A DNA stretch of 64,000 nt from Myxococcales bacterium (GCA_050942745.1 JBMNNX010000003.1:6767-70766); one strand, 5' to 3'; positions 4,255 through 57,025 are shown, numbered from the stretch's first letter. The notes: generated by a model from the sequence alone, not told the origin. Numbers and translations: made by a program.

Positions 4255-4893
4255 CTACCGAGGGTAGACCCGGCCCGCCTCGGCGACGATCTTCTCAACC
4301 AGGCGCGCGGGCAGGAAGGCGGCCAGCCCTTCGCGGTCGAGCTGCAGCAGCGGAGGCCGGCAGACCCGGATTTCCTCGTGGCAGCGCGGGCACTTTTCGG
4401 CGCAGAGAACCTGGGCGACAGGCGTCGAGGTTTCGTACTGCACCGGCCGCATCAGCGCGCCGCAGCCGCGCGGGCAGGAGACCCGCGGCTCGAGCAACCG
4501 AACGAGCCCCGCGCGCCGGCGAATGAACGCGGCCCGCCGATCGCGCGCCTCCCTCAAGTCCGCGTCGGAGAGCTCGTCGGGCCTCCCGTCGTCCTGCGTC
4601 TGCTTCTCGATGAGCACGTGCTCGCGCGAGTCGGTGATGGTCTCGACGACGAAGACGTGGATCTCGCCGCGCCTCTCAGCGGCGATGTGGACCGCCTCGG
4701 CCTTCTCGCGCTCGCTGTGCTCGGACAGGCTGTCGCGCCAGCGGTAATAGGGAACCCCCTCGACCTCCGCCGACGGCACGCGCAAGACGACGATCGGCTC
4801 CCGATCCTCGGCCCCACACACACAGTCGAGGAAGGCCTCGCGGATCTGCGGAGCGCACCGGACGATGAGTAGCCCTGGGTCGATCAACTTCAT
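4255..4893 (-). CDS. hypothetical protein with C-terminal Cys-rich (zinc-ribbon-like) region
   Basis: ORF 4255..4926; likely start is MKLIDPG (ATG at 4893, GAGG upstream). Coding-like composition. Cys cluster SCPRGCG...CAEKCPRCHEEIRVC. I did not recognise a family. Confidence 0.5.
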   Translation of the reverse strand: MKLIDPGLLIVRCAPQIREAFLDCVCGAEDREPIVVLRVPSAEVEGVPYYRWRDSLSEHSEREKAEAVHIAAERRGEIHVFVVETITDSREHVLIEKQTQDDGRPDELSDADLREARDRRAAFIRRRAGLVRLLEPRVSCPRGCGALMRPVQYETSTPVAQVLCAEKCPRCHEEIRVCRPPLLQLDREGLAAFLPARLVEKIVAEAGRVYPR

Positions 4894-5235
4894 GCCTCGC
4901 CTCGTACCACGCTCCATCGGCCACAATTCTGCCTACTGCTGCCGGCATGCCGCTGCCGAATCTTCGCCCGCTCTAAGGAGACAGTAGCTGCCCGGCCTCG
5001 GCGCGGCAGGCAATTCGTTTCTGTTCCGAGCACGACCATGATCCCCTCCAGCAGTTCGCGCCCATGCTATCGGCCGCCAAGCCGGCTCCAACCGGCTATC
5101 GCGCAAACGCCGAGGGCGGCGTCGGACTGCGAGCAGATTCGAGAAGGCGACTTGCCGGCGCTCGCGGCGCCTCAGGCGCCGCTTCGAGGCCGCCGGGGCC
5201 CGCCGCGCCGCATCCGGTTGAGCCAGCGGACGACA

Positions 5236-10959: not shown

Positions 10960-13536
10960 ATGAAATCCCGCTTTCTATCAATGACCGCGTTGTTCTGCTT
11001 CGCGGCCCTCATGTCCTGCGCATCCGGGGACTCCGACGAGAGCCCCGACACCGACTTGGGCCAGGCTTCAAGCGCCATGAGCGCGCCGGTCTGCGGCAAC
11101 GGGCTCCTCGAGCCCGGCGAGCAATGCGACGACCGCAACCCCCTGCCCGGCGACGGCTGCTCGGCATCTTGCCAGGTCGAGCCGCACTTCGCGTGCACTG
11201 ACGGCATCGGCTGGGGGCGAAACGACTACGGCCAGGCGCGAGCTCAGGGGCCGCTCTCGAGAGTAATGGCGATCGCTGCTGGCGACGGCCACAGCCTGGC
11301 GCTCAAGTCGGACGGGACGATAGCCGCCTGGGGATACAACGGCTACGGCCAAGCCAGCGCACCCGCAGGGTTCTCGAACGTCGTGGCGATTGCCGGGGGC
11401 GGCGACCACAGCCTGGCGCTCAAGTCGGACGGAACGGTGGTCGCCTGGGGGGATGACGACTGGGGCCAGTCCAGCGTCCCCGCCGGGCTCTCGAACGTCG
11501 TGGCGATCGCTGCAGGCATGTCGCACAGCGTCGCCTTGAAATCGGACGGAACGGTGGTCGATTGGGGATTCATCGACCTCTTCCAGACCGACGTCCCCGA
11601 AGAGGCCACGGAGGTGGTGGCGATCGCGGCGGGCGGCATCCACAACCTGGCGCTCAAGTCGGACGGGACCGTAGTCGCCTGGGGAGACAACAACTACGGC
11701 CAGGCCAGCGTCCCCGCAGGGCTCTCGGACGTCGTGGCGGTCGCCGCGGGCGGCGACCACAGCCTGGCGCTCAAATCGGACGGAACGGTGGTCACTTGGG
11801 GAGACGACGAATGGGGCCAGTCTAGCGTCCCCGCTGGGCTCTCGAACGTCGTGGCGATAGCCGCCGGCCAGGACTTCAGCCTGGCGCTCAAGTCGGACGG
11901 CACGGTTATCGGCTGGGGACACAACGGCTCTGGCCAGGCCGACGTCCCCGCCGGGCTCTCGAACGTGGTGGCGATAGCCGCCGGCGCCGAGCACAGCCTT
12001 GCGTTGAAGTCCGACGGGACCGTGGCCGCCTGGGGAATCAACGACTATGGCCAGATCGACGTCCCCACCGGGCTCTCGGGCGTGGTGGCGATAGCCGCCG
12101 GCACCAACCACAGCCTCGCCCTCAAGTCCGACGGGACGGTGGTCGCCTGGGGTCGCAACAACTACGGCCAGCTCGACGTCACCGCCGGGCTCTCGGACGT
12201 CGTGGCGATCGCCGCGGGTGGCGACCACAGCTGGCGCTCAAATCGGACGGAACGGTGGTCGCCTGGGGATACGACGACTTCGGCCAAGCCAACGTCCCCG
12301 CTGATCTGTCGGGAGCGGTGGCCGTCGCTGCTGGCCTCTTCCACAGCATTGCGCTCAAGTCGGACGGGACGATGGTCACGTGGGGCCTGACCATCGATGG
12401 CGCGCTCAACGTGCCCGCCGGGCTCTCGGGAGTGGTGGCGATCGCCGCGGGCGACCGCTACAGCCTCGCTCTGAAGTCGGACGGGACGGTGGCCGCTTGG
12501 GGTGCCAGCCACCACGTGGAAACCAATATCCCCACCGGGCTCTCGGGGGTCGTCGCGTTGGCTGCAGGCCCCCGTGCCCAGCACGCCCTCGTGATCACGA
12601 GCTTCTGCTCCCTGCTCGGCTCGCTCTTCGTCACGCCTGAGCCGCCGGGCGCCAACTGCCGTCACTGGCGGGCAGAAGATCGATGCCTATGAGGCCGATC
12701 TCTCGGTGACCGTGACCTACCTCTGCAACGGCACCGACGGCGCCACCGCCAACGTCTCGGTGACCGACGAGCCCGCGGGAGCCAACTGCACCAATGGCGG
12801 CAAGCGGATCGAAACGAGCGTGGGCTCCGGCCCGACCGTCACCTCCTTCATCTGCAACGGCGCCGACGGCGTGAGCGTGCTGGCTGTGGCCGAGCCTGCC
12901 GGTGCGAACTGCCCTTACGGCGGCATCAAGCTCACCGGCGCCGGCGAAGACCAGTACGTCTGCAACGGCGCGCCGGGCGAAGACGGACTGAAGGCGCTCA
13001 TGGCCACCTCGCCCGAGCCTGCTGGCGCCAATTGCAGCTACGGCGGCACGCGGATCGACACCGGCATCGACCGCGACGGCGATGGCGAGCTCGACGCCGA
13101 AGAGATCACCGCGACGCAGTACGTCTGCGACGCCGGCACCACGCTTGTGGCGACCAAGCCCGAGCCGGCGGGCGCCAACTGCAGCTATGGCGGAACGCGC
13201 ATCGACAGCGGCATCGACCTCGATCGCGACGGCGAGCTCGACTCCAAGGAAGTCACTGCGACCGAGTATGTCTGCGCCTCCGGCACCACTCTGGTGGTCA
13301 CCTCGCCCGAGCCGCCAGGGGACAACTGCGAGGCTGGAGGGACGCGAATCGCCACCGGCATCGACCGCGACGGCGACGGCAGTCTCGGAGACGACGAGGT
13401 CCTTGCGACTTCCTTTGCCTGCAACGGCGCGGCGGGAGCAAATGGGACCAGCGAGCAAGGCTGCTCGGCGGACGGCGCCGGTTTCGGATGGCTTGCCCTA
13501 CCGGCGATCTTGTGCGCGCTGCAGCGGAGGCGCTGA
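10960..13536 (+). pseudogene. RCC1-repeat surface protein with Myxococcus Cys-rich repeat and MYXO-CTERM tag, interrupted by two frameshifts
   Basis: Lipobox FAALMSC and CGNGLLEPGEQCDDRNPLPGDGCSASCQVE. About 11 RCC1-like blades (HSLALKSDGTVVAWG...GQ..VPAGLSNVVAIAAG). Six EP(A/P)GANCxxGGxRI...YVCxG repeats. C-terminal GCSADGAGFGWLALPAILCALQRRR. The frame changes at ~12232, where cacagctggcgctc replaces the cacagcctggcgctc seen in sister repeats. It changes again at ~12660-12667, splitting the gene into ORFs 10960..12390, 12255..12692 and 12706..13536. Confidence 0.8.
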
Positions 13537-20258: not shown

Positions 20259-23200
20259 TCACTTGAAGAAGCCTCCGCCGCCCTTCTTGCGCCGCATCTC
20301 GATGAGCCGCAGCTCGGTCGATGCCTCGGCGTTCTTCGGGTTGACGGCGACCGCGGCGCGGAAAAACTTCTCGGCCCTGGCGAGGTCGTTCTCGACCCGA
20401 GCCATGACGCCGAGCGTGTAGTGCGCCCGGTCGCACTCGCGGTCGAGCCGCAGCGCCTGCTCGAGCTTGGCCTTTATCTGCGGCATGTTCGAGCGCTGCG
20501 CGGGGTCGAGGTACATCGCCCAGGCCTGCATGGCGAGGTGGAGCGCCTTGTTGCTCTCGGCGAAGGCCTTGCCGAAGAGCTCGGCGGCGGCGGCGAACTC
20601 CTTCTTCTTGAGATGCAGGTCGGCCTGCTTGAGCGTCACCTCGAGGCTCGAGGCCTTGGGCGCCTGGGACTGAGACGGGGCGGCGAGCCGCATCAGGTAC
20701 ATGCTGCGCTTGGCGTCGTCGTACAGCGTCTCGTACGCCTCGGTCAGCGCGGCGAAGATGTCCTTCACCTTGGGGGTGAGGTTCGCGAGCGCCGACGGCA
20801 GGCGGTCCGGGTGGAAGACCTTCACCTGCGAGAAGTAGGCGGCCTTGACCTGCTCGCCGTTCGCTTCGCGCTGCAGGCCGAGGCGCGTGAACAGGTCCTC
20901 GCGGGCGATGCCGATGTGCCGCGCCTCGATCTTCTTGGCGAGCGCGATCTCTTCGGGGCTCAGGGTCGGCTGCTTGGCGGGCGCCGCAGGCGGCGAGGCT
21001 GCGCTCGGGGCGCTGGAAGGCTTCTCGACGACGCCGCCCTCAACAGCCGCCTGCCGCGGCAGCACGCCGAGGTTGTCGAAAGCGCGACGCAGCAGGCGCT
21101 GGCGCCGGGCGCGCACGTCCTTGGGGTCAGTCACGTCTTCACCATCGCCATAGAAGGGTTCATCCGCGGGCACGGAGAACTCGTCCTCGGGTGACAAAGC
21201 TGCATTCCAGCCGCCCTCGATAGCCGGCGGCGTCTTCGGTCTGCCCCGGTGACTGACGGCCTCGCCCTCTGGCGCCTCCATCCAGTCCTCGCCCGGGCCC
21301 TGCGTCGCAGCCGGCTGGTGCGGCGAAGGGAAGTCGCGCGGGGTCGGGGCCTCGAAGTCCGTCTTCCCTGCCATCGCTTCCAGCACCGAGGCGATTCCGC
21401 CCGGCTCAACCAGCCCGCCGCGCGACGGCTCGAACACCGGCGGCACCTCGAGGATCGGGGCGGGCGCGGGCTGCTCTGGGGTGACCGGCGGCGGCCGCAC
21501 CGGATGAAGAACGGGCGGCGCCACCGCCGGCGCGGACGGGAAGAACGGAATCGGAGGAGGCTCGAACTCCACCGAGTCGTAGTCCAGAGGCTCGTTCGAC
21601 GACCAGGACCGGTCCGCCGCGGGAACGGGCGGGGGGCACGACGGGGGCTGGTCGTCGAAGACCATGTCCATCAAGCTCGGGCCCTCGGGGGCCGCCTCGA
21701 CCGGCGACGGGATCGAAGGAGGAGTGGCGGACCCGACGACCGAGTCCCATGAGCTGACGACCGGGGGCTCGTCGATGAGCGCTGCGCCCCCCAGCTCGAT
21801 CGCCTCTTCCGGCGACAGATCGATCTCTGGGGTCGCCTCCATCTCCACTGGGCGAGGCGGCTCGGCCTCGCCGGCAGGGAGCTGAGCTGCGAGGTCGCGG
21901 GCTTGCTGCAGGCGGGCCTGGCGCTCTGCTTCGGCCGCAAGCCTGGCCGCGAAGAGGCGCTCGTACTCCTGAGGGTCCCAGGCCTCCGTCCGCTCGCCAA
22001 TCTCGCGAGCGGCGTCGAGGAGAGCCTCCTCGGAGCCATGCGCCGGGACCTCCTGCGACAGGTCCAGCTCCAGCTCGATAGGCTCGGACTCGCCCGCGGG
22101 CGCCTCTTCGATCAGATCGTCCTCGCCGAGGGCCGCCGGAGAATCGAGGCCCGAATCGAGCGAGAGCCCCGCGGTGGCGAGCTCCATCTCCTCGGCCGCG
22201 ACCGCGATGCCGGTCAGCTCCACGGACGCAGGTCCCGACGGCAAAGTGCCCGGTCGCTCGATCAGACGTTCATCAGCGAGCTGCTTCTCGAGCTGCTCTG
22301 CGCGCGCGCGCTCCTGCTCGATCTGCGCTCCGAGCGCCGCGAGCTCCGAGACAGCCGTCGCTTCGGCCGCGCCGCTGCGGCAGGCGCGCAGCGAGGCCTC
22401 CTCCGCGTCCTGGATCCTCTGCTCGAGCTCCCGCGCGCCCGCCTCCGCCTCGATCCGGGCGGCCTCGTCCTGATGCTGGGCCTGCCGCAGCGCGGCGAGC
22501 CTCTCTTCGAGCGCTCGGACCCGCTCGCGCTCCTCGCGCAGCCGCGCCTCGGCCTGGGCGCGCGCGCCTTCGATCGCCTGCGCAGATCCCGAAGCGCGAG
22601 CGAGCCGTTCGCGCTCGAGCGCCTCTTGCTCGAGCCGGCGTCGGGCCTCGTCGGCGTTCCGAAGTTGACCCTCGAGATCCCCGCGGACCTTTTCGGAGTG
22701 TGCGCGCGCCGCCTGTTCGGCCTCGCGCCGCGCCTGGGCCTCGACGATCTCGGCGGCGAGCGCGTCGGCGCGCTCGCGCTCCTCGCGCAGCTTCTCCTCG
22801 AGCTCGGCGCGCAGCGCTTCGATGATCGAACGCTGCTCTTGTTCGGCCTGCTCGCGGGCGCGCCGCTCCCTCTCTTCGGCCTCCTTCTCGAGCCGCTCGC
22901 GCAACTCGTCGGCGGCCTTCAGCTTCTCGGCGAGCTCGTCGCGGGCACGCTCGGCCTCGGCCCGCGCCGCCTCTTCGGCCTCGCGGTGGGCCTTGGCCTC
23001 CGCGATTTCGGCGGCGAGCGCCTCGGCGCGCTCGCGCTCCTCGCGCAGCTTCTCCTCGAGCTCCGCGCGCAGCGAATCGGCGCGGTCGCGCCCTTCGCCT
23101 TCGGCCTGCTCGCGGGCGCGCCGCTCCCGCTCCTCGGCCTCCTTCTCGAGCCGCTCGCGCAGCTCGTCGGCGGCCTTCAGCTTCTCGGCGAGCTCGTCGC

Positions 23201-26200
23201 GCGAACGCTCGGCCTCGGCCCGCGCCGCCTCCTCAGCCTCGCGGCGGGCCTTCGCCTCCGCGACCTCGGCGGCGAGCGCCTCGGCGCGCTCGCGCTCCTC
23301 GCGCAGCCTCTCCTCGAGCTCGGCGCGCAGCGAATCGGCGCGGTCGCGCCCTTCGCCTTCGGCCTGCTCGCGGGCGCGCCGCTCCCTCTCTTCGGCCTCC
23401 TTCTCGAGCCGCTCGCGCAGCTCGTCGGCGGCCTTCAGCTTCTCGGCGAGCTCGTCGCGCGAACGCTCGGCCTCGGCCCGCGCCGCCTCTTCCGCCTCGC
23501 GGCGGGCCTTGGCCTCCGCGACCTCGGCGGCGAGCGCATCGGCGCGCGCGCGTTCCTCGAGCAGCCTCTCCTCGAGCTCGGCGCCCAGCGCTTCTGCACT
23601 CTTGCGGCCCTCGTCCTCGGCCTGCTCGCGGGCGCGCCGCTCCCGCTCCTCGGCCTCCTGAGCGAGCCGCTCGCACGCTTCGGTGACTTGCGCGAGCTTC
23701 GCGCCCAGCTCCTCGCGCGCCTTCTCCGCCTCGGCGCGCGCGGCCTCTTCGGATTCCCGCTGCGCCGCGGCCTCGCCGCGCTCCCGGTCGAGCGCCTCGG
23801 CGCGCTCGGCCTGCTCGCGCAGCCGCACCTCGAGCTCCGCTCGGAGGTGATCGGAGCTCTGGCGCGCCTCTTCCTCTGCGCGCTCGCGCGCCTGGCGCTC
23901 CTTCTCCCGCGCCTCGGCCTCGAGCTGGCGCAGCGCCTCCTCGGCCTCGCGAACCTTCGCCTCGAGCTCCTCGCGGGCCCGCGCCGCCTCGGCGCCCGCG
24001 GCGGCGGCGGCGGCGCAGGCCTCGCGCTCCTCGGCGATCTCCGCCTCGAGCGCCTCGACCCACTCGGCCTGCTCGCGGAGCTGCTCTTCCTTCTCGGCGC
24101 GGATCTGCTCGGCGCTCTTGCGCGAGTCCTCTTCGGCCTTCTCGCGCGCCCGCTGCTCCTTCTCGCGCGCCTCCTCGAGCGCCCGCTTGCGCTGCTCGGC
24201 GAGCTCGGCCAGCCGCGCCTCGAGCCCGGCGCAGGCCTCGGCGAGCTTCGCGCGCTCCGACTCTTCGGCCTCGCGCGCGGCGATGGCCTTCTCGAGCGCG
24301 GCGTCGAGCTCTTCGACCCGCGCTCGCTCGCGGGCGATAGCCTCCTGCGCCTCGGCGCGCTGTCGCTCTTCGGCCTCGCGCAGCTCGCGGTCGCGCTGTT
24401 CCTGGCGCTCGTTCGCCGCGCGCGCCGCGTCGGCCTCTTCGCGCCGCAGCGACTCTTCGGCCTCGCGGACCTTTGCCTCGAGCTCCTCGCGCGCCCGCGC
24501 GAGCTCGCCGCGGAGCCGCTCGGCCTCGCTGCGCGCCTGCTCGAGCCCGGTGACGCGAAGCTCGAGAGCGGCAGCGCGCTCCTTCTCCCGCGCGAGCTGC
24601 TCTTCGCCCTCGAGCCGGGCCTTTTCGACGGCCTCGTGGCAAAGCTGCTCGGCGCGCTCGCGCGCCTGCTGCTCGCAAAGCTTCGACTGCTCCTCGAGCC
24701 GAGCCCGCGCTTCGGCAGCGGCGCGCACCCTGGCCTCGAGCTCGGCGCACTCCTTCTCGGCCTCGGCGCGGGCGGCCTCGTCCGCGCTCCACACCGCCTC
24801 GAGCTCGGCGCTGCGCCGCTCGAGCTCGTCGGCGCGGGCGCGCTCCTCGGCGACGAGCTGCTCGGCCGCGGCGGCGATCTCCGCGGCCTCCCTCGCGGCG
24901 CGCTCTTGCGCCTCGCAGAGGACCGCCTGAACAGCCCCGCCCTCGTCGCCGGCCTCCACGCGCTGGGCAGCCGACTGCAGCTCCTGCTCGGCCTCGCGCG
25001 CCAGCTCGAGCGCCGCGTCCCGGTCGGCCTCGGCGCGCCGGCGCGCCTCTTCTGCCCGAGCGCGCTCGGCCTCGGCGCCGGCGAGCTTCCTTTCGAGCTC
25101 GTCGGCGCGCTGGCGCTCCTCCTCGAGCCGCTCGCTTGCGCGCTGCTCGGCCTCGGCGCGGGCCGCTTCGATCAGCGCGCGCGCCTCCTGCTCGGCCTGC
25201 GCGAGCCGCTCCTCGGCGGCCCGCTGCGCCTCCGCGGCGGCCTTCTCGCGAGCCTGACGCGCCTCTTCGAGCGCCCTGTCGGCGCGCGCCTCGGCCTCGC
25301 GGCGCTCCTCCTCGAGCCGCTCGCGCTCGCGCAGCTCCTCGGCCTGACGCGCCTCCTCCTCTTCGAGCCGCGCGCACAGCTCGCCGCGGCGCCGCCGCAG
25401 CTCCTGCTCTTGGGACTGCGCCTGCGACTCGATCTCCCGGGCCAAGGCCTCCGCGGCCTCGCGCGCCTGCTGCTCGAGCTCGCGGGCGCGCCGCTCGGCC
25501 CGCTCGCGGACCTCCTCGGTCGGATCGATCGCTTCGACGCCGCCCAGCGCCATGAGCGCCGCGGCCAGCCAACGCACGCGGGCCGGGTCTACCCCGCGCT
25601 CGATGAGATCCTCGGGGCCGCCGCCCGCGCGCCAGCTCTCGAGCGCCTCGCGCTCGCGCGGCTCGAGCCGCAGCGTCGAGGCGAGCTGCGCGAAGCGGGC
25701 GCCGAGCCGCAAGACCCGCGGGCCGAGCGCGGCGAGCATCGCGGCGACGTAAGCCTGCGCGCCCGGCGACGCGAGCGCCTCGGCGATGCAGCCGTCGGCG
25801 CCGTCCGCGTCGAGCGCCAGCCCCGAGGTCCACCCCGGAGGCTCTTCGGACCGAAACTCGAAGCGCCCGTCGGCAAGGCGCCCCAGCGCGCGCAGGTGCT
25901 CGAAGAGCTGCAGCCGCATCCCCTCGCGCACCCCGTCCTCGTCGAGCGCGCCCATCTCGCAGAGCACCTCGGGCAGCGGCCTGCCGCGCTCGAGCTGCGG
26001 CAGCGCGCGATCGAGGGTCTCGAGATCGATGAGCCCGCTCTGGACGAGCACCTGGCCGAGCGGGCGGAAGCCGACCGCGACGCGCGCGCCCGCCGGCACG
26101 CCCTGGCGCATGAAGAGCCGGCTGGTGCCGCCGCTCCCGTCGATGCGCAGCACGCCCGTCGCGCCGCGCTCTCGGGCGGACAGCAATAGCTCGGCGAGCG

Positions 26201-35466: not shown

Positions 35467-36939
35467 GTGAGCCAGAACATTACCGATCTCGAGCCCAAGA
35501 CCCTCTGGAAGTACTTCGACGAGATCTGCAAGGTCCCGCATCCCTCGAAGAAAGAGGGCAAGCTCCTCGAGTACCTCAAGCAGACCATCGAGAAGCTCGG
35601 CTACAAGCCCGAGCAGGACCAGACCGGCAACATCGTGGTGCGCAAGCCCGGCAGCCCCGGCCACGAGAACGCGCCGATGGTGCTCCTGCAGGGCCACGTC
35701 GACATGGTCTGCGAGAAGAACAAGGGCACCGAACACGACTTCGAGAACGACCCGATCCAGGCCTACGTCGATGGCGAGTGGATCAAGGCGAAGGGCACCA
35801 CGCTCGGCGCCGACAACGGCATCGGGGTCGCCGCCGCGCTCGCGCTGCTCGAGGCAAAGGACCTCGTCCACCCGCCGCTCGAGATGCTCTTCACCGTTGA
35901 CGAGGAGACCGGCCTGACCGGCGCCAAGGGCCTCAAGCCCGGGTTCCTGCAGTCGCAGACCATGATCAACCTCGACTCCGAGGAGGACGGCATCGTCTAC
36001 GTCGGCTGCGCTGGCGGCGGCGACACCGTCGGCCGCATGAAGATCGAGTGGGTCGACGCGCCGGCGGGCTTTGAAACCCTCGAGCTTAACGTCGCCGGCC
36101 TCAAGGGCGGCCACTCGGGCACTGACATTGACAAGGGGCGCGGCAACGCCATCAAGATCCTCGGGCGCGCCCTGCGCAAGATGCTCGCGCTCAGCGACGT
36201 GCACGTCGCCTCGTTCAAGGGCGGCAGCAAGCGCAACGCCATCCCGCGCGAGGCCGAGGCGCTCGTGCTCGCGCCCGCGGCCGACCTCGACAAGCTGACC
36301 GCGCTGGCCGCCGAGCTGACCGCGACCGTGCGCGACGAGCTCGGCACGGTCGAGCCCTCTGTCGAGATCAGCCTGCGCAAGGCGCCGGCCGCCCAGGGCA
36401 AAGTCATCGCGCGCCCGCAAGTCCAGCGCGTGCTCGACGCGGTCCTCGCCATGCCGCACGGCGTGCTGCGAATGAGCAGCGACATCGCCGGGCTCGTCGA
36501 GACCTCGACCAACCTCGCCACCCTGTTCATCGAGGGCGAGGAGATCGCCATCGGCACCAGTCAGCGCAGCCTCATCGGCTCGGCGAAGGCCGAGGCCATC
36601 GAGCAGGTCAAGGCCGTGATGCGCCTGGCCGGCCTCGCGCCCACCGTCGGCGAGGGCTACCCGGGTTGGAAGCCGAACATGAGCTCGCCGGTGCTCGCGC
36701 AGTTCGAGAAGGCCTACAGCGAGCTGTACGGCGATAAGCCCCAGGCGATGGCCATCCACGCAGGCCTCGAGTGCGGGCTCATCGGCGAGGTCTTCCCGAA
36801 GATGGACATGATCTCGGTCGGCCCGACGATCCTCGACGCCCACTCGCCCGACGAGCGGCTCCACATCCCGGCGACCGAGAAGTTCTGGAAGGTGCTCGTG
36901 AAGCTGCTCGCGCAGCTCGCTGAGCAGCCTGCGGCGTAG
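35467..36939 (+). CDS. pepD: aminoacyl-histidine dipeptidase (M20C)
   Basis: GTG at 35467 gives 490 aa. Collinear with E. coli PepD: LWKYFDEICKVPHPSKKE, GNIVVRKP, LQGHVDMV, DPIQAYVDGEWIKAKGTTLGADNGIG, INLDSEEDG. Confidence 0.9.
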   Translation: MSQNITDLEPKTLWKYFDEICKVPHPSKKEGKLLEYLKQTIEKLGYKPEQDQTGNIVVRKPGSPGHENAPMVLLQGHVDMVCEKNKGTEHDFENDPIQAYVDGEWIKAKGTTLGADNGIGVAAALALLEAKDLVHPPLEMLFTVDEETGLTGAKGLKPGFLQSQTMINLDSEEDGIVYVGCAGGGDTVGRMKIEWVDAPAGFETLELNVAGLKGGHSGTDIDKGRGNAIKILGRALRKMLALSDVHVASFKGGSKRNAIPREAEALVLAPAADLDKLTALAAELTATVRDELGTVEPSVEISLRKAPAAQGKVIARPQVQRVLDAVLAMPHGVLRMSSDIAGLVETSTNLATLFIEGEEIAIGTSQRSLIGSAKAEAIEQVKAVMRLAGLAPTVGEGYPGWKPNMSSPVLAQFEKAYSELYGDKPQAMAIHAGLECGLIGEVFPKMDMISVGPTILDAHSPDERLHIPATEKFWKVLVKLLAQLAEQPAA

Positions 36940-36968
36940 CGCGGGCTCGGACCATCGAATGGCAGTGG

Positions 36969-37001
36969 AGAGGGCCCCGGTGTCGGGGCCCTCTTCGATT
37001 C
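36969..37001 (+). terminator. probable terminator after pepD
   Basis: 11-bp perfect stem AGAGGGCCCCG / CGGGGCCCTCT with loop GTGT, followed by TCGATTCT. Confidence 0.55.
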
Positions 37002-37003
37002 TG

Positions 37004-37303
37004 GCCCTCCGACCGTTCGTCCTTGCCTCGAAGCGGAGTGCCGCCGCGCCTGAAAGCCCCCGCCTGTACGGCGCGCGGAGGGCGGCGCTCGTGCCCAGGA
37101 GATCGCTGCGCGCCGTGCGAGAGCGCGCGGCGCGGGTAGGTGCCACGATCTCAACTCCTGCCCTCCAACCGCCCGCCCTTGCATCGAGGCGACTCGCCGC
37201 CGCGCGTGAAAGCCCCCCTCCTGCACGGCGCGCTGAGGGCGACGTTCGTGCCCAGGAGATCGCTGCGCGCCGTGCGGGAGGGGGGGCGGGGGTAGGTGCC
37301 ACG
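37004..37303 (+). repeat. family C intergenic repeat, two tandem ~145-bp copies (period ~156 bp)
   Basis: Units 37004..37147 and 37160..37303 share GCCCTCC.ACCG...CTTGC.TCGA.GCG...GCCGCCGCGC.TGAAAGCCCCC..CCTG.ACGGCGCGC.GAGGGCG...TCGTGCCCAGGAGATCGCTGCGCGCCGTGCG.GAG...GGTAGGTGCCACG. Related copies lie at 37845..37928 and, inverted, at 56712..56822. Confidence 0.7.
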
Positions 37304-37505
37304 CCCCGCCACTCCGAATCCGGCGCTGGGGAGTCGAGCCGGTTGAACCCCTGCGTTCTCCGCCTCTCACGTGGCACCCCTTCGATGGCGACGATCAGCC
37401 GAGGTCCCGACCATCTTCAAGCGGGGGACGGTGACGTTCGGCGCCTCGTCGGGAGGGCCGGAACGCCGATCTGCGCGTCGGCTGGCACCTCGATGCACCG
37501 TGAAC

Positions 37506-37757
37506 CACTCCGATCTGTGGCTGCTGGTACCCGTTTGTGTACGGAGCCACTGATCTTTGCGTTTTTCTAAACGAAGAGGTTCCGAGATCCGCTCCGATCT
37601 GTGGCTGCGGCTACCCGTTGGTGTGCGGGAGCCACTGATCTTTGCGTTTTTCTAAACGAATAGGTTCCGAAGGCCACTCCGATCTGTGGTTCGCCTACCC
37701 GTTTGTGTGCGGGGTCACTGATCGTTGCGTTTTTCTGAACGAATAGGTTCCGAGGGG
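37506..37757 (+). repeat. three tandem ~85-bp units, each with a stem-loop plus T-run (candidate tandem sRNA genes or terminator array)
   Basis: Units 37506..37589, 37590..37674 and 37675..37757. Consensus: C.CTCCGATCTGTGGCTGC.G.TACCCGTT.GTGT.CGG.AGCCACTGATCTTTGCGTTTTTCTAAACGAA.AGGTTCCGA. Noticeably lower GC than the flanks. No unique spacers. Confidence 0.85.
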
Positions 37758-37981
37758 CCAGCCCTCGTGCTGGCCCGCGCGGACGGCCTGTCGTCGCAGG
37801 CATGAGGGGCCGGCACTCTGTACCGGCCGTCAGGCCGCCGAGACGGCGGCCCCTCCCAACTCTTGCCCCTCCAACCGTTCCTCCTCACCTCGAAGCGCAA
37901 AGCGGCAGGCAGCCTGTGCCTCGAGCGGGGTATAGTTCAGTCTCCGACTTTCGGGGCTCGACTCGGCGCGAGGAACCGCCC

Positions 37982-39574
37982 ATGAGACGCTGGAACGGCT
38001 GGGGGGATGATTCGCAGTCTTACCCGCTGCCCAGCAGCGCGGTGACCTACCTCGAGCGGGTCGTCGGCAAATCCATCCCGCCGCACGACGCGGCGCTCTT
38101 CGACGTCGTCGCCTCGGTCCCCGAGTCGCGGCTGCCCGAGCATCGGCTCGTCGACACGCGCCCCGAGACGCGCCTGCGCCACGCGCGCGGCCAGAGCCTT
38201 CCCGACTGGATAGCCCTGCGCTCGGGGCGCATCGCGGCCTTCCCCGACGGCGTCGCGCGCCCGGCCTCGGGCGACAAAGTGCGCGAGCTGCTCGGCTGGG
38301 CCGAGGAGATCGGCGCGCGCGTCATCCCCTACGGCGGCGGCACCAGCGTCGTCGGCCACATCAACCCGCTCCCGGGCGACAGGCCGGTGCTCACCCTGAG
38401 CCTCGAGAAGCTCAACCGCCTCGCCGGCCTCGACGAGCGCAGCCAGCTCGCGACCTTCGGCGCCGGCGTCACCGGCCCCGAGCTCGAACGCCGACTCGGC
38501 GACCGGGGCTTCACGCTCGGACACTTCCCGCAGTCGTTCGAGCTGTCCACCCTCGGCGGCTGGATCGCGAGCCGTTCGAGCGGCCAGCAGTCGCTGCGCT
38601 ACGGGCGCATCGACCACCTCTTCGCCGGCGGCCGGCTCGAGTCGCCGGCCGGGACCTTGGAGCTGCGACCCTTCCCCGGCTCGGCCGCGGGGCCGGATCT
38701 GCGCCAGCTCGTGCTCGGCTCCGAAGGCCGCCTCGGCGTACTCACCGAAGCCACCGTGCGCATCACGCGCCGGCCGCAGAAGGAGGCCTTCCACGCCGTC
38801 TTCTTCCGCGGCTGGGACGAAGGGCTGGAGGCGACCCGGCGCCTCGCGCAGTCGGGGCTGCCGCTGTCGATGCTGCGGCTGAGCACGCCGGAAGAGACCG
38901 AGACGACCCTCGCGCTCGCCGGCCACAAGGCGCTGCTCGGCCCCTTCGAGAAGGTGCTCGCGGCGCTCGGCGCGAAGTCAAAGAAGTGCATGCTCATCGC
39001 CGGCTTCTCGGGCTCGGCCGAGCTCGTCGCGGCGGCCCGCGGCGCCGCGCTCGCCATCGCGCGCGAAGGCCGCGGCATCCACGTCGGCAAGACCTTCGGC
39101 CGGCAGTGGCACAAGAACCGGTTCCGCACGCCTTACCTGCGCAACTCGCTGTGGGAGCGCGGCTTCGCGGTCGATACTCTCGAGACGGCGGCGACCTGGG
39201 CGCAGGTGCCGGAGCTGGCCGCCGCCATCGGCGCGGCGCTGCGCGACGGCCTGCGGGAGACAGGCGAGCGGGTCCACGTCTTCTCGCATTTGTCGCACGT
39301 GTACCCGAGCGGCTCGAGCATCTACACGACTTACCTGTTTCGCCTCGCCTCGGATCCCGAGGAGAACCTGCGCCGCTGGCGGACTCTGAAGGACGCGGCG
39401 AGCCGGGCCATCGTCGAGGGCGGCGGGACCATCAGCCACCAGCACGGCGTCGGGGTCGATCACCTTCCCTACCTCGCGGCGGAGAAGGGCGCGCTCGGCA
39501 TGTCGGCTTTGGAGGCGCTCTTCGGCCAGCTCGATCCGAAGGGCGTGATGAACCCCGGCAAGCTGGTGGCGTAG
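37982..39574 (+). CDS. FAD-linked oxidase, alkyl-dihydroxyacetonephosphate synthase (AGPS)-like
   Basis: ATG at 37982. N-terminal RRWNGWG motif, as in AGPS (KWNGWGY). FAD-binding PCMH-type segment VIPYGGGTSVVGH. C-terminal HQHGVG...MNPGKL. Confidence 0.75.
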   Translation: MRRWNGWGDDSQSYPLPSSAVTYLERVVGKSIPPHDAALFDVVASVPESRLPEHRLVDTRPETRLRHARGQSLPDWIALRSGRIAAFPDGVARPASGDKVRELLGWAEEIGARVIPYGGGTSVVGHINPLPGDRPVLTLSLEKLNRLAGLDERSQLATFGAGVTGPELERRLGDRGFTLGHFPQSFELSTLGGWIASRSSGQQSLRYGRIDHLFAGGRLESPAGTLELRPFPGSAAGPDLRQLVLGSEGRLGVLTEATVRITRRPQKEAFHAVFFRGWDEGLEATRRLAQSGLPLSMLRLSTPEETETTLALAGHKALLGPFEKVLAALGAKSKKCMLIAGFSGSAELVAAARGAALAIAREGRGIHVGKTFGRQWHKNRFRTPYLRNSLWERGFAVDTLETAATWAQVPELAAAIGAALRDGLRETGERVHVFSHLSHVYPSGSSIYTTYLFRLASDPEENLRRWRTLKDAASRAIVEGGGTISHQHGVGVDHLPYLAAEKGALGMSALEALFGQLDPKGVMNPGKLVA

Positions 39575-40269: not shown

Positions 40270-40461
40270 GAGTTCGTTCCGCGCGAAATACCCGAATCTG
40301 CAAGTGGTCGGATTCACGAGCGAGTTGTGGGAGGTTCTTGTCCAAATCAGGCTTGGGAGGCGAATCCGCGAGTCCCTCGACTCCGAGGCTCCCGCTGGTC
40401 GCCTCTACGCTCGGGATGAGCGGATTTCGCCCAAGTTGCTTGGACAAGGCGGAACGAACTC
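40270..40461. mobile_element. MITE-like palindromic element, family B (192 bp)
   Basis: 13-bp terminal inverted repeats GAGTTCGTTCCGC / GCGGAACGAACTC and sub-terminal CTTGTCCAA / TTGGACAAG. Lies between the convergent hsp20 and glycosyltransferase genes. A near-identical copy is at 56336. Confidence 0.65.
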
Positions 40462-42214: not shown

Positions 42215-43516
42215 CTAGAACGGGACCTCGTCGTCGCCCGGCTCGACAGGCTCGGCCGAGACCTCGCCGTCGTCCGACCCCGGCTCGCGCAGCGGCAGCG
42301 ACACCTGGCCGGACGGCCAGTCCGGAGCCATGGTCGCCTCGGCGGGCACCACGTACCACTGTCGGCCCCGTACCTGCTGGCGCTTGAGCAGGCCTTCGCG
42401 CTCCATCGCCTCGAGCATCTTCGAGAAGGTCGAGAAGCCGTGCTCGCGCTCGTCGAAGTCCGGCTCCTTGCGGACGATCGCCTCCTTGAGCAGCGACGGG
42501 TTCAAAGGCCCGGTGGCGTGGGCGAGCAAGCTCGAGACGACGTCCCGAGCGATGGGAGGCACGCTCGGCTCGCCGGTGCCCCGCCTCCTGCCTCCTCTCG
42601 GTTGCTTCGCCGGCTCTTTCGAAACCTCCTCGGCTTGCTCGGCTTGCTCGGCCGCGGCGCCGGTGGACGCGGCGGGCTTCTTGGCCGCGGCGCCGGCGGT
42701 CGCGGCGGGCTTCTTGGCCGCGGCACCGGCGGAGGCGGCGGGCTTCTTGGCCGCGGCACCGGCGGAGGCGGCGGGCTTCTTGGCCGTGGCGCCGGCGGTC
42801 GCGGCGGGCTCCTTGGCCGCGGCTCTCCTGCCGGACCCCTTGGGCTCGGCCTGCTTCTTCGCGCCCTTCTTCTCGGGCGCCGCCTCCGGCGCCGGCGCGA
42901 CCGCCGCGTCCCCCCGGGCAACCGGCTCTTCGACGGGTACCGCTCGCGCGATGGCCGCCGCGCTCCTGGCGAGCCGCCGCTCCTCGGTCTCCTCGGCGTC
43001 CGCCTTGCGACCGCCGCGCCTCGGCCGGTGCGCGGCCTCCTCGCCCCGGCCAGCGCCCGCCTTCAGGTAGATGAACTCGTCGCAGGCCCTGACGAAGAGC
43101 CGCGAGGTCGCCTCGCGCACGCCGATGCCGATGACCTGGCGGTCGTTCTCGCGCAGCTTGTAGGCGAGCGGGCAAAAGTCGCTGTCGCCCGAGGCGATGA
43201 CGAAGGTGTCGATGAACTCGCGCGCGTAGCAGAGCTCGAGCGCGTCGATGACCAGGCGCATATCCGCGCCGTTCTTGCCCGTGCGCGTCGAGGGCGGCAC
43301 GTCGATGAGCTCGACGCCCATCTCGTGCAGGTGCGCCTTGGCCTCGCGAAAGCGCGACCAGTCGGCGTAGGCGCGCCGGTAGATGACCTTTCCCTTCTCG
43401 AGCAGGCGATCGACGGCAGGCTGGAGGTCGAAGCTCGCCGCGGTGATTCCGGTGTTGGTGACCAGGTTCTCGAAGTCGAGAAAGAGGGCGATTCGGCGCT
43501 GATTTTCTTTGGTCAA
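42215..43516 (-). CDS. NYN (LabA-like) nuclease domain - AKKPA repeat - OST-HTH/LOTUS domain protein
   Basis: TTG at 43516 with a GGAG 5 nt upstream. IALFLDFENL...GKNGADMRLVIDA...FVIASGDSDFCPLAYKLRE (NYN/LabA). Five 12-aa repeats A(A/T)AKKPAA(S/T)AGA. C-terminal LLKEAIVRKEPDFDEREHGFSTFSKMLEAMEREGLL (LOTUS-like). Confidence 0.75.
   Translation of the reverse strand: MTKENQRRIALFLDFENLVTNTGITAASFDLQPAVDRLLEKGKVIYRRAYADWSRFREAKAHLHEMGVELIDVPPSTRTGKNGADMRLVIDALELCYAREFIDTFVIASGDSDFCPLAYKLRENDRQVIGIGVREATSRLFVRACDEFIYLKAGAGRGEEAAHRPRRGGRKADAEETEERRLARSAAAIARAVPVEEPVARGDAAVAPAPEAAPEKKGAKKQAEPKGSGRRAAAKEPAATAGATAKKPAASAGAAAKKPAASAGAAAKKPAATAGAAAKKPAASTGAAAEQAEQAEEVSKEPAKQPRGGRRRGTGEPSVPPIARDVVSSLLAHATGPLNPSLLKEAIVRKEPDFDEREHGFSTFSKMLEAMEREGLLKRQQVRGRQWYVVPAEATMAPDWPSGQVSLPLREPGSDDGEVSAEPVEPGDDEVPF
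42650..42829 (-). repeat. 5 x 36-bp tandem repeat (encodes AAKKPAA[ST]AGA units)
   Basis: GGCCGCGGC.CCGGCGG.GGCGGCGGGCTTCTT repeated head to tail inside the NYN-LOTUS gene. Confidence 0.85.
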
Positions 43517-56005: not shown

Positions 56006-56335
56006 GGGCTTTGCTTCTAGCCTCGAGGCCGCGCCAATGCAACTTTCTCCAGTGATTCTCAATCGTTAATCGCGCACCCGCGGATCGACGACGGATTCGT
56101 TCACGTGTTCACGAACCCCTGCGCGCGAATCTCCCCCGACCGTTCCGCGTCGCATTCCGGCACTCCGAATCGGTAGAAGAGGAAGGAAATCCGCCGTCTC
56201 GGCGGACCGGCGGCTGGGCGTACGGGTATTCAACCGGCTCGATTCCCCTGCGCCGAATCGGAGTGGCGGGGCGTGCCAACTGCCTCCACAGCCAGCCAAG
56301 CCGGAACCAAAGAGGAGCCGGGAGAACGGGCACCA

Positions 56336-56711: not shown

Positions 56712-56822
56712 TTCCTGCACGGCGCCCTCAGCACGCCGTGCAGCAGGGGGCTCTCACTCGCGGCGGCGCCTCGCTTCGAGGCAAGGATGAACGGCTGGAA
56801 GGGCAAGAGCTGGGAGGGACCG
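56712..56822 (-). repeat. family C intergenic repeat, inverted copy
   Basis: The reverse complement reads CCCTCCCAGCTCTTGCCCTTCCAGCCGTTCATCCTTGCCTCGAAGCGAGGCGCCGCCGCGAGTGAGAGCCCCCTGCTGCACGGCG, matching the 37004/37160/37845 units. Confidence 0.55.
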
Positions 56823-57025
56823 CCCGGCAGAAAAGGAACGTCGCCTCGCGCCCGCGAAGGTCGATCTGCACGTCCTGCGCAGCGCCGCTCGAGCCGATTG
56901 CTCGTTTTGTATGGGCCAGGCTCCACCGACAAAGCCCTTCGCCGCGCGCGGTGATGCTAACCTTCGGCTGGGCCGGAAGTGTGGGATTGAAGGCAGCGCC
57001 TGCTGCCTAACCACGAGGGGTAGCG

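Follow-up and report, generated by a model that had tools for sequence, protein, structure and literature searches.

Between the pepD gene and an AGPS-like gene (domains FAD_binding_4 and FAD-oxidase_C) of a Myxococcales bacterium, three short tandem units of low GC content, each with a hairpin followed by a T-rich tract, raise the question of whether this spacer harbours a set of small-RNA genes, a control element for a neighbouring gene, or a repeat without function. The units were analysed in a stretch of 64,000 nucleotides of one strand (hereafter the window), for which a first-pass annotation had proposed either tandem small-RNA paralogues with intrinsic terminators or a repeated cis-regulatory or terminator module. 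Loci collected from other genomes and metagenomes are referred to by L numbers.

The array was delimited with Tandem Repeats Finder (TRF) at 37498-37754 (period 84, 3.1 copies, 87% matches, score 381). These are the same three units that had been annotated as starting at 37506, 37590, and 37675, with the phase moved by about 6-8 bp; when aligned, the three units had a mean column identity of 91%. The unit boundaries used here are those of Table 1. The position of the array was likewise confirmed, i.e., about 560 bp past the pepD stop codon (36939) and about 225 bp before the ATG of the AGPS-like gene (37982), as was its low GC content (0.50-0.56 versus approximately 0.70 window-wide). A 25-nt tail motif (TTGCGTTTTTCTNAACGAANAGGTT) occurred three times, with 0.00 occurrences expected from shuffles, and of the four TTTTT runs that the plus strand of the window contains, three lie inside the array. 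Some of the annotated details proved to hold for part of the units only: units 1 and 2 have exact copies of the 11-nt inverted repeat GATCTGTGGCT...AGCCACTGATC with its one T.T mismatch, whereas unit 3 has the arms GATCTGTGGTT...GGTCACTGATC, whose pairing needs G.U; the inner CCGT/ACGG hairpin is found in unit 1, whereas units 2 and 3 have CCCG(T)/(G)CGGG; and the T-run tail reads TTTGCGTTTTTCT in units 1 and 2 but starts with G in unit 3 (GTTGCGTTTTTCT). The hairpin GGGCCAGC/GCTGGCCC described as closing the array was recovered with its arms at 37755-37762 and 37769-37776. Since it aligns with the 5′ half of a unit, it looks like the decayed 5′ half of a fourth unit.

Table 1. Features of the array and its surroundings (window coordinates), and helices of the aligned unit (alignment columns)
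Feature	Position	Strand	Description
157-bp dispersed repeat, left of module	37004-37315	+	two tandem copies (TRF, self-BLAST)
Leader	37379-37497	+	GC-rich; travels with the array; homologous to L059 2369-2490 (BLAST, MAFFT); may harbour a promoter
Unit 1	37500-37583	+	long imperfect hairpin 37512-37555; U-rich tract TTTGCGTTTTTCT 37556-37568; mini-hairpin CGTTT/AAACG; covariance model R1 score 101 bits, plus strand
Alternative 5′ hairpin, example from unit 1	37503-37522	+	columns 4-9:18-23; AACCAC/GTGGCT; loop is the invariant TCCGATCT
Unit 2	37584-37668	+	85 bp; hairpin 37596-37640, -24.8 kcal/mol; U-rich tract 37641-37653; R1 score 95 bits; whole-unit fold z = -3.5
Unit 3	37669-37752	+	hairpin 37681-37723, partly closed by G.U; tract GTTGCGTTTTTCT 37724-37736; of the window units the nearest to L059_u1 of the sister species (BLAST 94%; alignment A4, all columns, 89%)
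Trailer	37753-37841	+	travels with the array; contains the GGGCCAGC/GCTGGCCC hairpin (37755-37776); homologous to the L079 trailer reaching the RDD stop codon (three-way alignment)
157-bp dispersed repeat, right of module	37845-37897	+	partial copy (BLAST against 37002-37035 and 56772-56824)
Long hairpin	columns 12-23:47-58
Inner stem	columns 32-35:42-46
Mini-hairpin	columns 62-66:71-75

The array is not an assembly artefact, because independent assemblies carry the same units: a contig from another run (L001) is identical from unit 3 on, and each of the sister-species arrays described below was assembled in at least two samples. Contigs from several independent assemblies break inside arrays (at the start of L001 and L078, and at the end of L068, L079, and L080); short-read MAGs may therefore show too few copies, and their bins may lack some of the arrays. 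Known identities were then checked. A CRISPR array, already dismissed in the annotation, was excluded because unique spacers are absent and the units abut directly. Protein-coding function was rejected on the basis of GC3 (0.54, compared with 0.93 for AGPS), of a frame that is lost between units 83, 84, and 85 bp long, and of open frames that differ between loci; a minus-strand ORF at 37567-37803 was ruled out by GC3 and frame inconsistency, and no conserved small ORF was found in the leaders. ARAGORN found no tRNA or tmRNA gene in 36000-39000, and a CsrA sponge was rejected as GGA in the loops is not conserved. The comparison with Rfam covariance models that the annotation had suggested assigned the array to no family, as the window contained no Rfam 15 match at gathering score, 36900-38000 none at E <= 10, and the array region of L072 only chance-level matches (<= 19 bits, E >= 0.16).

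The nearest relative of the AGPS-like protein (88% identical) belongs to a sister species whose source is fermentation metagenomes, and it was in this species that the further complete arrays were found. Metagenome runs in which the organisms occur are SRR31066179, SRR28624435, and SRR1561992. A scan of species-representative genomes with a hairpin pattern returned 56 matches, which is near the chance expectation; one was real, namely a 2.3-unit array at 2491-2680 of a contig from a sister-species MAG (L059), and the other 55 were single chance matches in unrelated phyla. This array (also in L068 and L069) is flanked by a RIO-type kinase gene and an RDD-family gene (RIO-RDD spacer), and the two flanking genes lie on the opposite strand. 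Metagenomes were scanned with the 20 most conserved specified bases, a pattern fitting nearly every unit. The real ones among the seven matches came from only two sister-species loci, RIO-RDD and T2SSE, the latter with three units between two same-strand T2SSE-type ATPase genes (L071, L072, L075-L078); the matches L066, L067, and L070 were chance hits in coding or unrelated sequence. Additionally, two short contigs (L079 and L080) end inside an array that starts about 100 bp past an RDD stop codon, antisense as in the sister species. Their RDD protein is 88% identical to the sister-species orthologue, and they probably belong to the window's own species. Arrays thus occupy at least three unlinked spacers with 2-3 units each (3, 2.3, 3, and at least 1.7 units of 83-85 bp; distinct units 67-89% identical), and their orientation is independent of the neighbouring genes, being co-directional with them in the window and in L072 and antisense to both at RIO-RDD. 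The 64-kb window holds one array. No family match was obtained from plasmid and phage collections (blastn) or from IMG/VR viral contigs (pattern), and an nhmmer profile and the covariance model R1 revealed no diverged copies in any of the collected loci. Within the collections scanned, the family thus appears to be restricted to the window's species and its sister species, each genome having about two arrays.

Conservation of the pepD-AGPS spacer bears directly on the proposed control of the AGPS-like gene. The sister species retains the gene order pepD-AGPS-HSP20-glycosyltransferase at about 86-91% DNA identity, and its pepD-AGPS spacer lacks the array. Homology between the two species ends at 36995, just past the pepD terminator hairpin, and restarts at 37925, about 57 bp before the AGPS start, leaving a non-homologous core of 929 bp in the window versus an unrelated 358 bp in the sister species. 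Conservation of the AGPS upstream region thus does not extend to the array. In more distant relatives with 70-78% protein identity (L008, L073, L074, L081), the orthologous spacers had no array either, and a relative at 77% carries an acetyltransferase gene in this spacer; contigs L082-L084 stop too near the gene to be informative. Judged from these comparisons, the array is not a dedicated AGPS regulator, because the sister species lacks it at the same gene order and the window copy duplicates the module of the RDD spacer (see below). The annotated alternative, in which the module would serve the AGPS-like gene as a cis-regulatory element or terminator, fails on the preserved synteny at about 90% DNA identity without the array, and also on the remaining copies, which adjoin unrelated genes, and on the RDD locus of both species, where the array is convergent with RDD and no co-oriented gene lies downstream. 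Two minor features of these spacers were recorded. The terminator-like hairpin of pepD, GGGCCCCGG...CGGGGCCC (window 36960-36995; L002 5557-5584), is conserved in both species and is followed by TTTTGTTTT in the sister species and by CTCTTCGATTCT in the window. A 67-bp element, 92.5% identical between the species and located in different spacers (window 40357-40423, after HSP20; L002 5865-5931, between pepD and AGPS), may be another small mobile spacer element.

The origin of the window copy was traced through its flanks. Its leader (about 120 bp) aligns with the leader of the sister-species RIO-RDD array. Window positions 37612-37841 align at 86% with L079 (positions 3-236, reverse-complemented), and this alignment runs through the final two units and some 85 bp of trailer as far as the RDD stop codon. 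With a leader common to L059 and a trailer common to L079, the window copy is, on these alignments, the product of a duplication in which leader, array, and trailer were copied together from the RIO-RDD spacer, over at least 460 bp; copying as such a block would be expected of a gene with its own signals. The RDD-adjacent array is present in both species, and the rest of their RIO-RDD spacers is unalignable. The T2SSE array has in common with the other arrays only the units and the 10-25 bp or so preceding them. The 157-bp repeats flanking the window copy may have mediated the move of the block. Further copies of this GC-rich repeat occur about 19 kb off at 56719-56824 (-) and 56229-56287 (-), and it was not found in the sister-species loci examined.

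For fold tests, nine distinct, closely related units were aligned. A model consisting of the long hairpin, the inner stem, and the mini-hairpin (21 pairs) kept 92% of 187 cells in standard pairs, versus 27-56% with slid partners. Of 39 non-Watson-Crick cells, 24 are G.U on the plus strand and 2 on the minus strand. Changes of both types, C-to-U opposite G and A-to-G opposite U, contribute to this asymmetry, so that a single strand-biased mutation process is not an easy explanation. In eight of the nine units, the plus-strand hairpin exceeds its complement in stability, and the hairpin from GATC to GATC has folding energies of -13.1 to -25.8 kcal/mol across the nine units, a stable, G+C-containing stem-loop as in intrinsic terminators. 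R1, a model built from the plus strand, scored the units at 74-101 bits on that strand and at <=21 bits on the minus strand; RNAalifold consensus energies of the strands are similar (-17.1 vs -17.4 kcal/mol). At the mismatch 17-53, six units have U.U, two have U-A, and one has A-U. Covariation, which the annotation had put forward as a further test, could not be separated from shuffles with these nine close units, double changes being limited to two pairs and 254-288 of 500 shuffles being equal. Variable columns are unevenly distributed along the unit: 6 of 39 columns vary in blocks 9-21 and 52-77, which were picked after inspection of the alignment, versus 35 of 47 elsewhere (Fisher 3e-8). 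The near-invariant blocks read CTCCGATC.GTGG (9-21) and.GATC.TTGCGTTTT.CT..ACGAA (52-77). Together, the wobble asymmetry and the clustering of variable columns suggest that constraint acts on a plus-strand RNA.

Based on these results, we consider the chances about even that the spacer harbours an autonomous locus for a non-coding RNA of the plus strand, made up of sibling sRNA-like modules and independent of both pepD and the AGPS-like gene, with the array as its repeated core. The annotated reading as tandem small-RNA paralogues with terminator-like ends is thereby upheld in part: it gains from the 24 to 2 G.U ratio, the clustered variable columns, the low copy number, and the neighbour-independent location, and it is weakened by the missing recognisable sigma-70 or sigma-54 promoter and by a U-tract that is interrupted by GCG and was not called by a terminator scan. 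Within the range of the promoter scan, i.e., sigma-70-like promoters, none was found in the units or leaders of the three loci, and reading of these sequences by eye gave no correctly spaced sigma-54 motif. The best in-unit hexamers, TTGCGT and TAGGTT, are only 13 bp apart, and the first unit of each array has no preceding tail altogether. A sigma-54 reading of TGGCACCTCGATGCA (37483-37497) was rejected for its spacing (GG-N9-GC instead of N10) and for its lack of conservation in L059 or L072.

For such an RNA locus, we infer transcription, a promoter, termination, and action in trans on targets as follows. Each module would begin with a short 5′ segment, single-stranded or alternatively paired, that bears the invariant CACUCCGAUC and whose CUCC is complementary to the GGAG of ribosome-binding sites. 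This would be followed by a hairpin with a 9-11 bp outer stem, an internal loop of 6-8 nt on the 5′ side, and an inner stem CCCGU/GCGGG with a UUGUGU loop, and the 3′ part would consist of a U-rich tract, (U/G)UUGCGUUUUUCU, and then a weak mini-hairpin. Transcription would begin in the leader or, less likely, at each unit from a promoter of an unrecognised type; a single start in the leader is favoured because no promoter was found in units or leaders and the U-tract is interrupted. The modules of hairpin and U-tract would form 3′ ends with partial read-through, and the outcome would be one to three nested or sibling small RNAs that expose the CUCC segment and act in trans. Counting against an RNA locus, the presence and absence between sister species, the decaying unit described below, and the narrow distribution would also fit a dispensable repeat.

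A repeat of this kind would be a neutral or selfish minisatellite, i.e., a terminator-like hairpin that was amplified by slippage or unequal recombination and scattered via other repeats, without any function. We regard this as unlikely, while noting that it would account for a pepD-AGPS array in one sister species that is missing in the other, for copy numbers ranging from 2.3 to 3, for a family known from two species only, and for the 157-bp dispersed repeat that brackets the window copy in a lineage with other small mobile spacer repeats. Stem-breaking changes have moreover accumulated in unit 1 of the T2SSE array in one strain, units 2 and 3 being nearly identical between samples. Variability that is strongly uneven along the unit and a wobble asymmetry of 24 to 2 in favour of plus-strand pairing are, however, hard to reconcile with a functionless repeat, as is the retention of the RDD-adjacent array in both species despite the unalignable spacer around it. 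Among known repeats, REP/BIME and MITE-like elements resemble the arrays in being intergenic, hairpin-forming, and variable among close relatives, but they number tens to hundreds per genome as opposed to about two arrays; the units are also strictly head-to-tail and of low GC content in a GC-rich genome, and neither terminal inverted repeats nor target duplications were seen. A high-copy REP or MITE element was rejected as the window holds a single array and the metagenome scan only two sister-species loci. With regard to the T2SSE locus, 18 of the 25 differences in 4.9 kb between L072 and the reverse complement of L071 fall in 247 bp covering the leader and unit 1 (L072 3172-3418); this cluster could be a recombination tract or reflect relaxed selection or an assembly effect.

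A stack of one-directional terminators or insulators, which would act purely in cis by stopping plus-strand transcription into downstream DNA, is less probable still. Like intrinsic terminators, including stacked ones, the units have a stable hairpin (-13 to -26 kcal/mol) that passes directly into a T-rich stretch on one strand only, T-runs being very rare in this genome; in the absence of an A-run on the other side the effect would be one-directional, and at RIO-RDD it would stop antisense transcription into RDD. The tail, (T/G)TTGCGTTTTTCT, has 8-9 T in 13 bases, but unlike the U-tract of a terminator it is broken by GCG three bases past the stem, which itself is a long hairpin with a large internal loop. 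A simple terminator scan called no terminator in any locus, partly because the scan cannot model this internal loop. Conserved sequence outside hairpin and tail, namely the invariant CACUCC and AACGAA, would not be needed for termination, and the arrays lie 560-590 bp past the upstream stop codons, with pepD having its own conserved hairpin (36960-36995). The same spacer of the sister species does without the array.

That the units are phased DNA sites, with GATC inverted repeats recognised by a DNA-binding or methylation-sensitive protein and a period of 84 bp (eight helical turns) placing them on one helix face, is very improbable. Both GATC tetramers are invariant in the nine units while other stem positions vary, and 260 bp of array contain 7 GATC versus 4.9 per kb in the window. 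On the other hand, the arms diverge yet keep RNA-type complementarity, in which G.U would be A.C on the other strand, arm spacing varies by 1-2 bp, no candidate binding-protein gene is common to the three contexts, and GATC:GATC may be read simply as the base of the stem.

Two further readings attribute a switch or a catalytic function to the unit, and we give either one only a slim chance. Tandem attenuators would alternate between the 5′ hairpin and the terminator-like long hairpin in controlling a downstream gene, in the window AGPS. The 5′ hairpin (columns 4-9:18-23) has 94% of its cells paired in the nine units, with one-sided, wobble-compatible changes in four of its six pairs, and, since each unit contains AGCCAC two times, its formation excludes that of the outer stem of the long hairpin; two well-conserved pairings thus compete for the same GUGGYU segment, and the array is co-oriented with a gene 225-375 bp downstream in two of the three contexts. 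This switch is at odds with the far lower stability of the 5′ hairpin compared with the long hairpin, the AGPS leader of the sister species without an array, the RDD locus of two species with no co-oriented gene after the array, the functionally unrelated downstream genes, and the lack of a match to any riboswitch or leader family. It corresponds to the cis-regulatory option of the first-pass annotation and is, among the alternatives, the one that the comparative data oppose most directly. Alternatively, the unit could be a self-contained structured RNA of an undescribed class, in which a closing helix (columns 3-7:80-84, 80% paired), the long hairpin, and the mini-hairpin would meet in a three-helix junction, around which the invariant nucleotides cluster (CUCC-GAUC, GAUC-KUUG-CGUU, ACG-AA), perhaps as a serial ligand- or protein-responsive switch or as a small self-cleaving ribozyme that, like hammerhead or twister ribozymes in tandem arrangement, would release monomers from the array transcript. 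A hammerhead-like junction was considered and rejected: CUGAUC is not CUGANGA, the GAAA strand is missing, and no Rfam ribozyme matched.

Returning to sibling small RNAs as the preferred reading, the closest functional analogue is the NsiR1-type tandem array, in which short, slightly diverged intergenic direct repeats are each thought to encode an RNA of about 60 nt; it has 12 copies at one locus, each with a DIF1-motif promoter, and its expression has been demonstrated (PMC9045159). The units described here are likewise head-to-tail, slightly diverged direct repeats of sRNA length between genes; unlike NsiR1 repeats, they carry no recognisable promoter of their own, occur as 2-3 units at several loci, and have no sequence or Rfam similarity. 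Within the Myxococcota, tandemly duplicated sRNA genes in a spacer are represented by Pxr of Cystobacter, an RNA of about 108 nt with 2-3 stem-loops whose genes have a constant location, between nla19 and an NADH dehydrogenase gene, with a sigma-54 promoter for each paralogue (PMC5568312). Phylum and tandem duplication in a spacer are thus shared, but the units here are 84 bp long, their neighbours are pepD/AGPS, RIO/RDD, and two T2SSE ATPases, and no correctly spaced GG-N10-GC was seen on reading by eye. ToxI-like type III antitoxin RNAs are structured and consist of tandem direct repeats of about 36-45 nt immediately upstream of the gene of a toxin endoribonuclease. The arrays resemble ToxI, whose repeats are transcribed to structured RNA, in their tandem direct repeats and differ from it in their period of 84 bp and in having no type III toxin gene in the three contexts.

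To our knowledge, hardly any regulatory RNA of Myxococcota other than Pxr has been explored, and next to nothing is available for uncultured lineages. The arrays form a real family in terms of sequence, lineage-restricted and of low copy number, of tandem modules that resemble structured RNA, and hence a new candidate RNA family of a known kind. If transcribed, it would be a new, young, low-copy sRNA family whose birth, tandem amplification, and spread can be traced between two sister species, giving a rare view on the origin of sRNA genes with an sRNA-like locus caught duplicating, as well as an example of a 3′-end-forming module in a 70% GC genome nearly without canonical T-run terminators. 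If not transcribed, it would serve as a warning of how closely a hairpin repeat that was amplified not long ago can resemble an sRNA array.

Further repeats were observed within the unit and in the vicinity of the arrays. The 84-bp unit itself derives from the old doubling of a half-unit some 42 bp long, as AGCCACT(CC)GATCT at columns 4-17 recurs at 47-58; the half-period of 41-42 is weak in TRF, with 58-59% matches in the window and L059. On the L059 contig, a 24-bp repeat (7.3 copies, 1023-1198) forms part of the tail of the RIO kinase gene, and a second repeat, of 108 bp, lies at 4822-5067 (2.3 copies, 99% identity). Other tandem repeats of the window, at 11267-12502, 13001-13380, 22705-23837, and 42641-42823 (periods of 117/351, 147, 258, and 33/99 bp), have the normal high GC content and probably lie within coding sequence.
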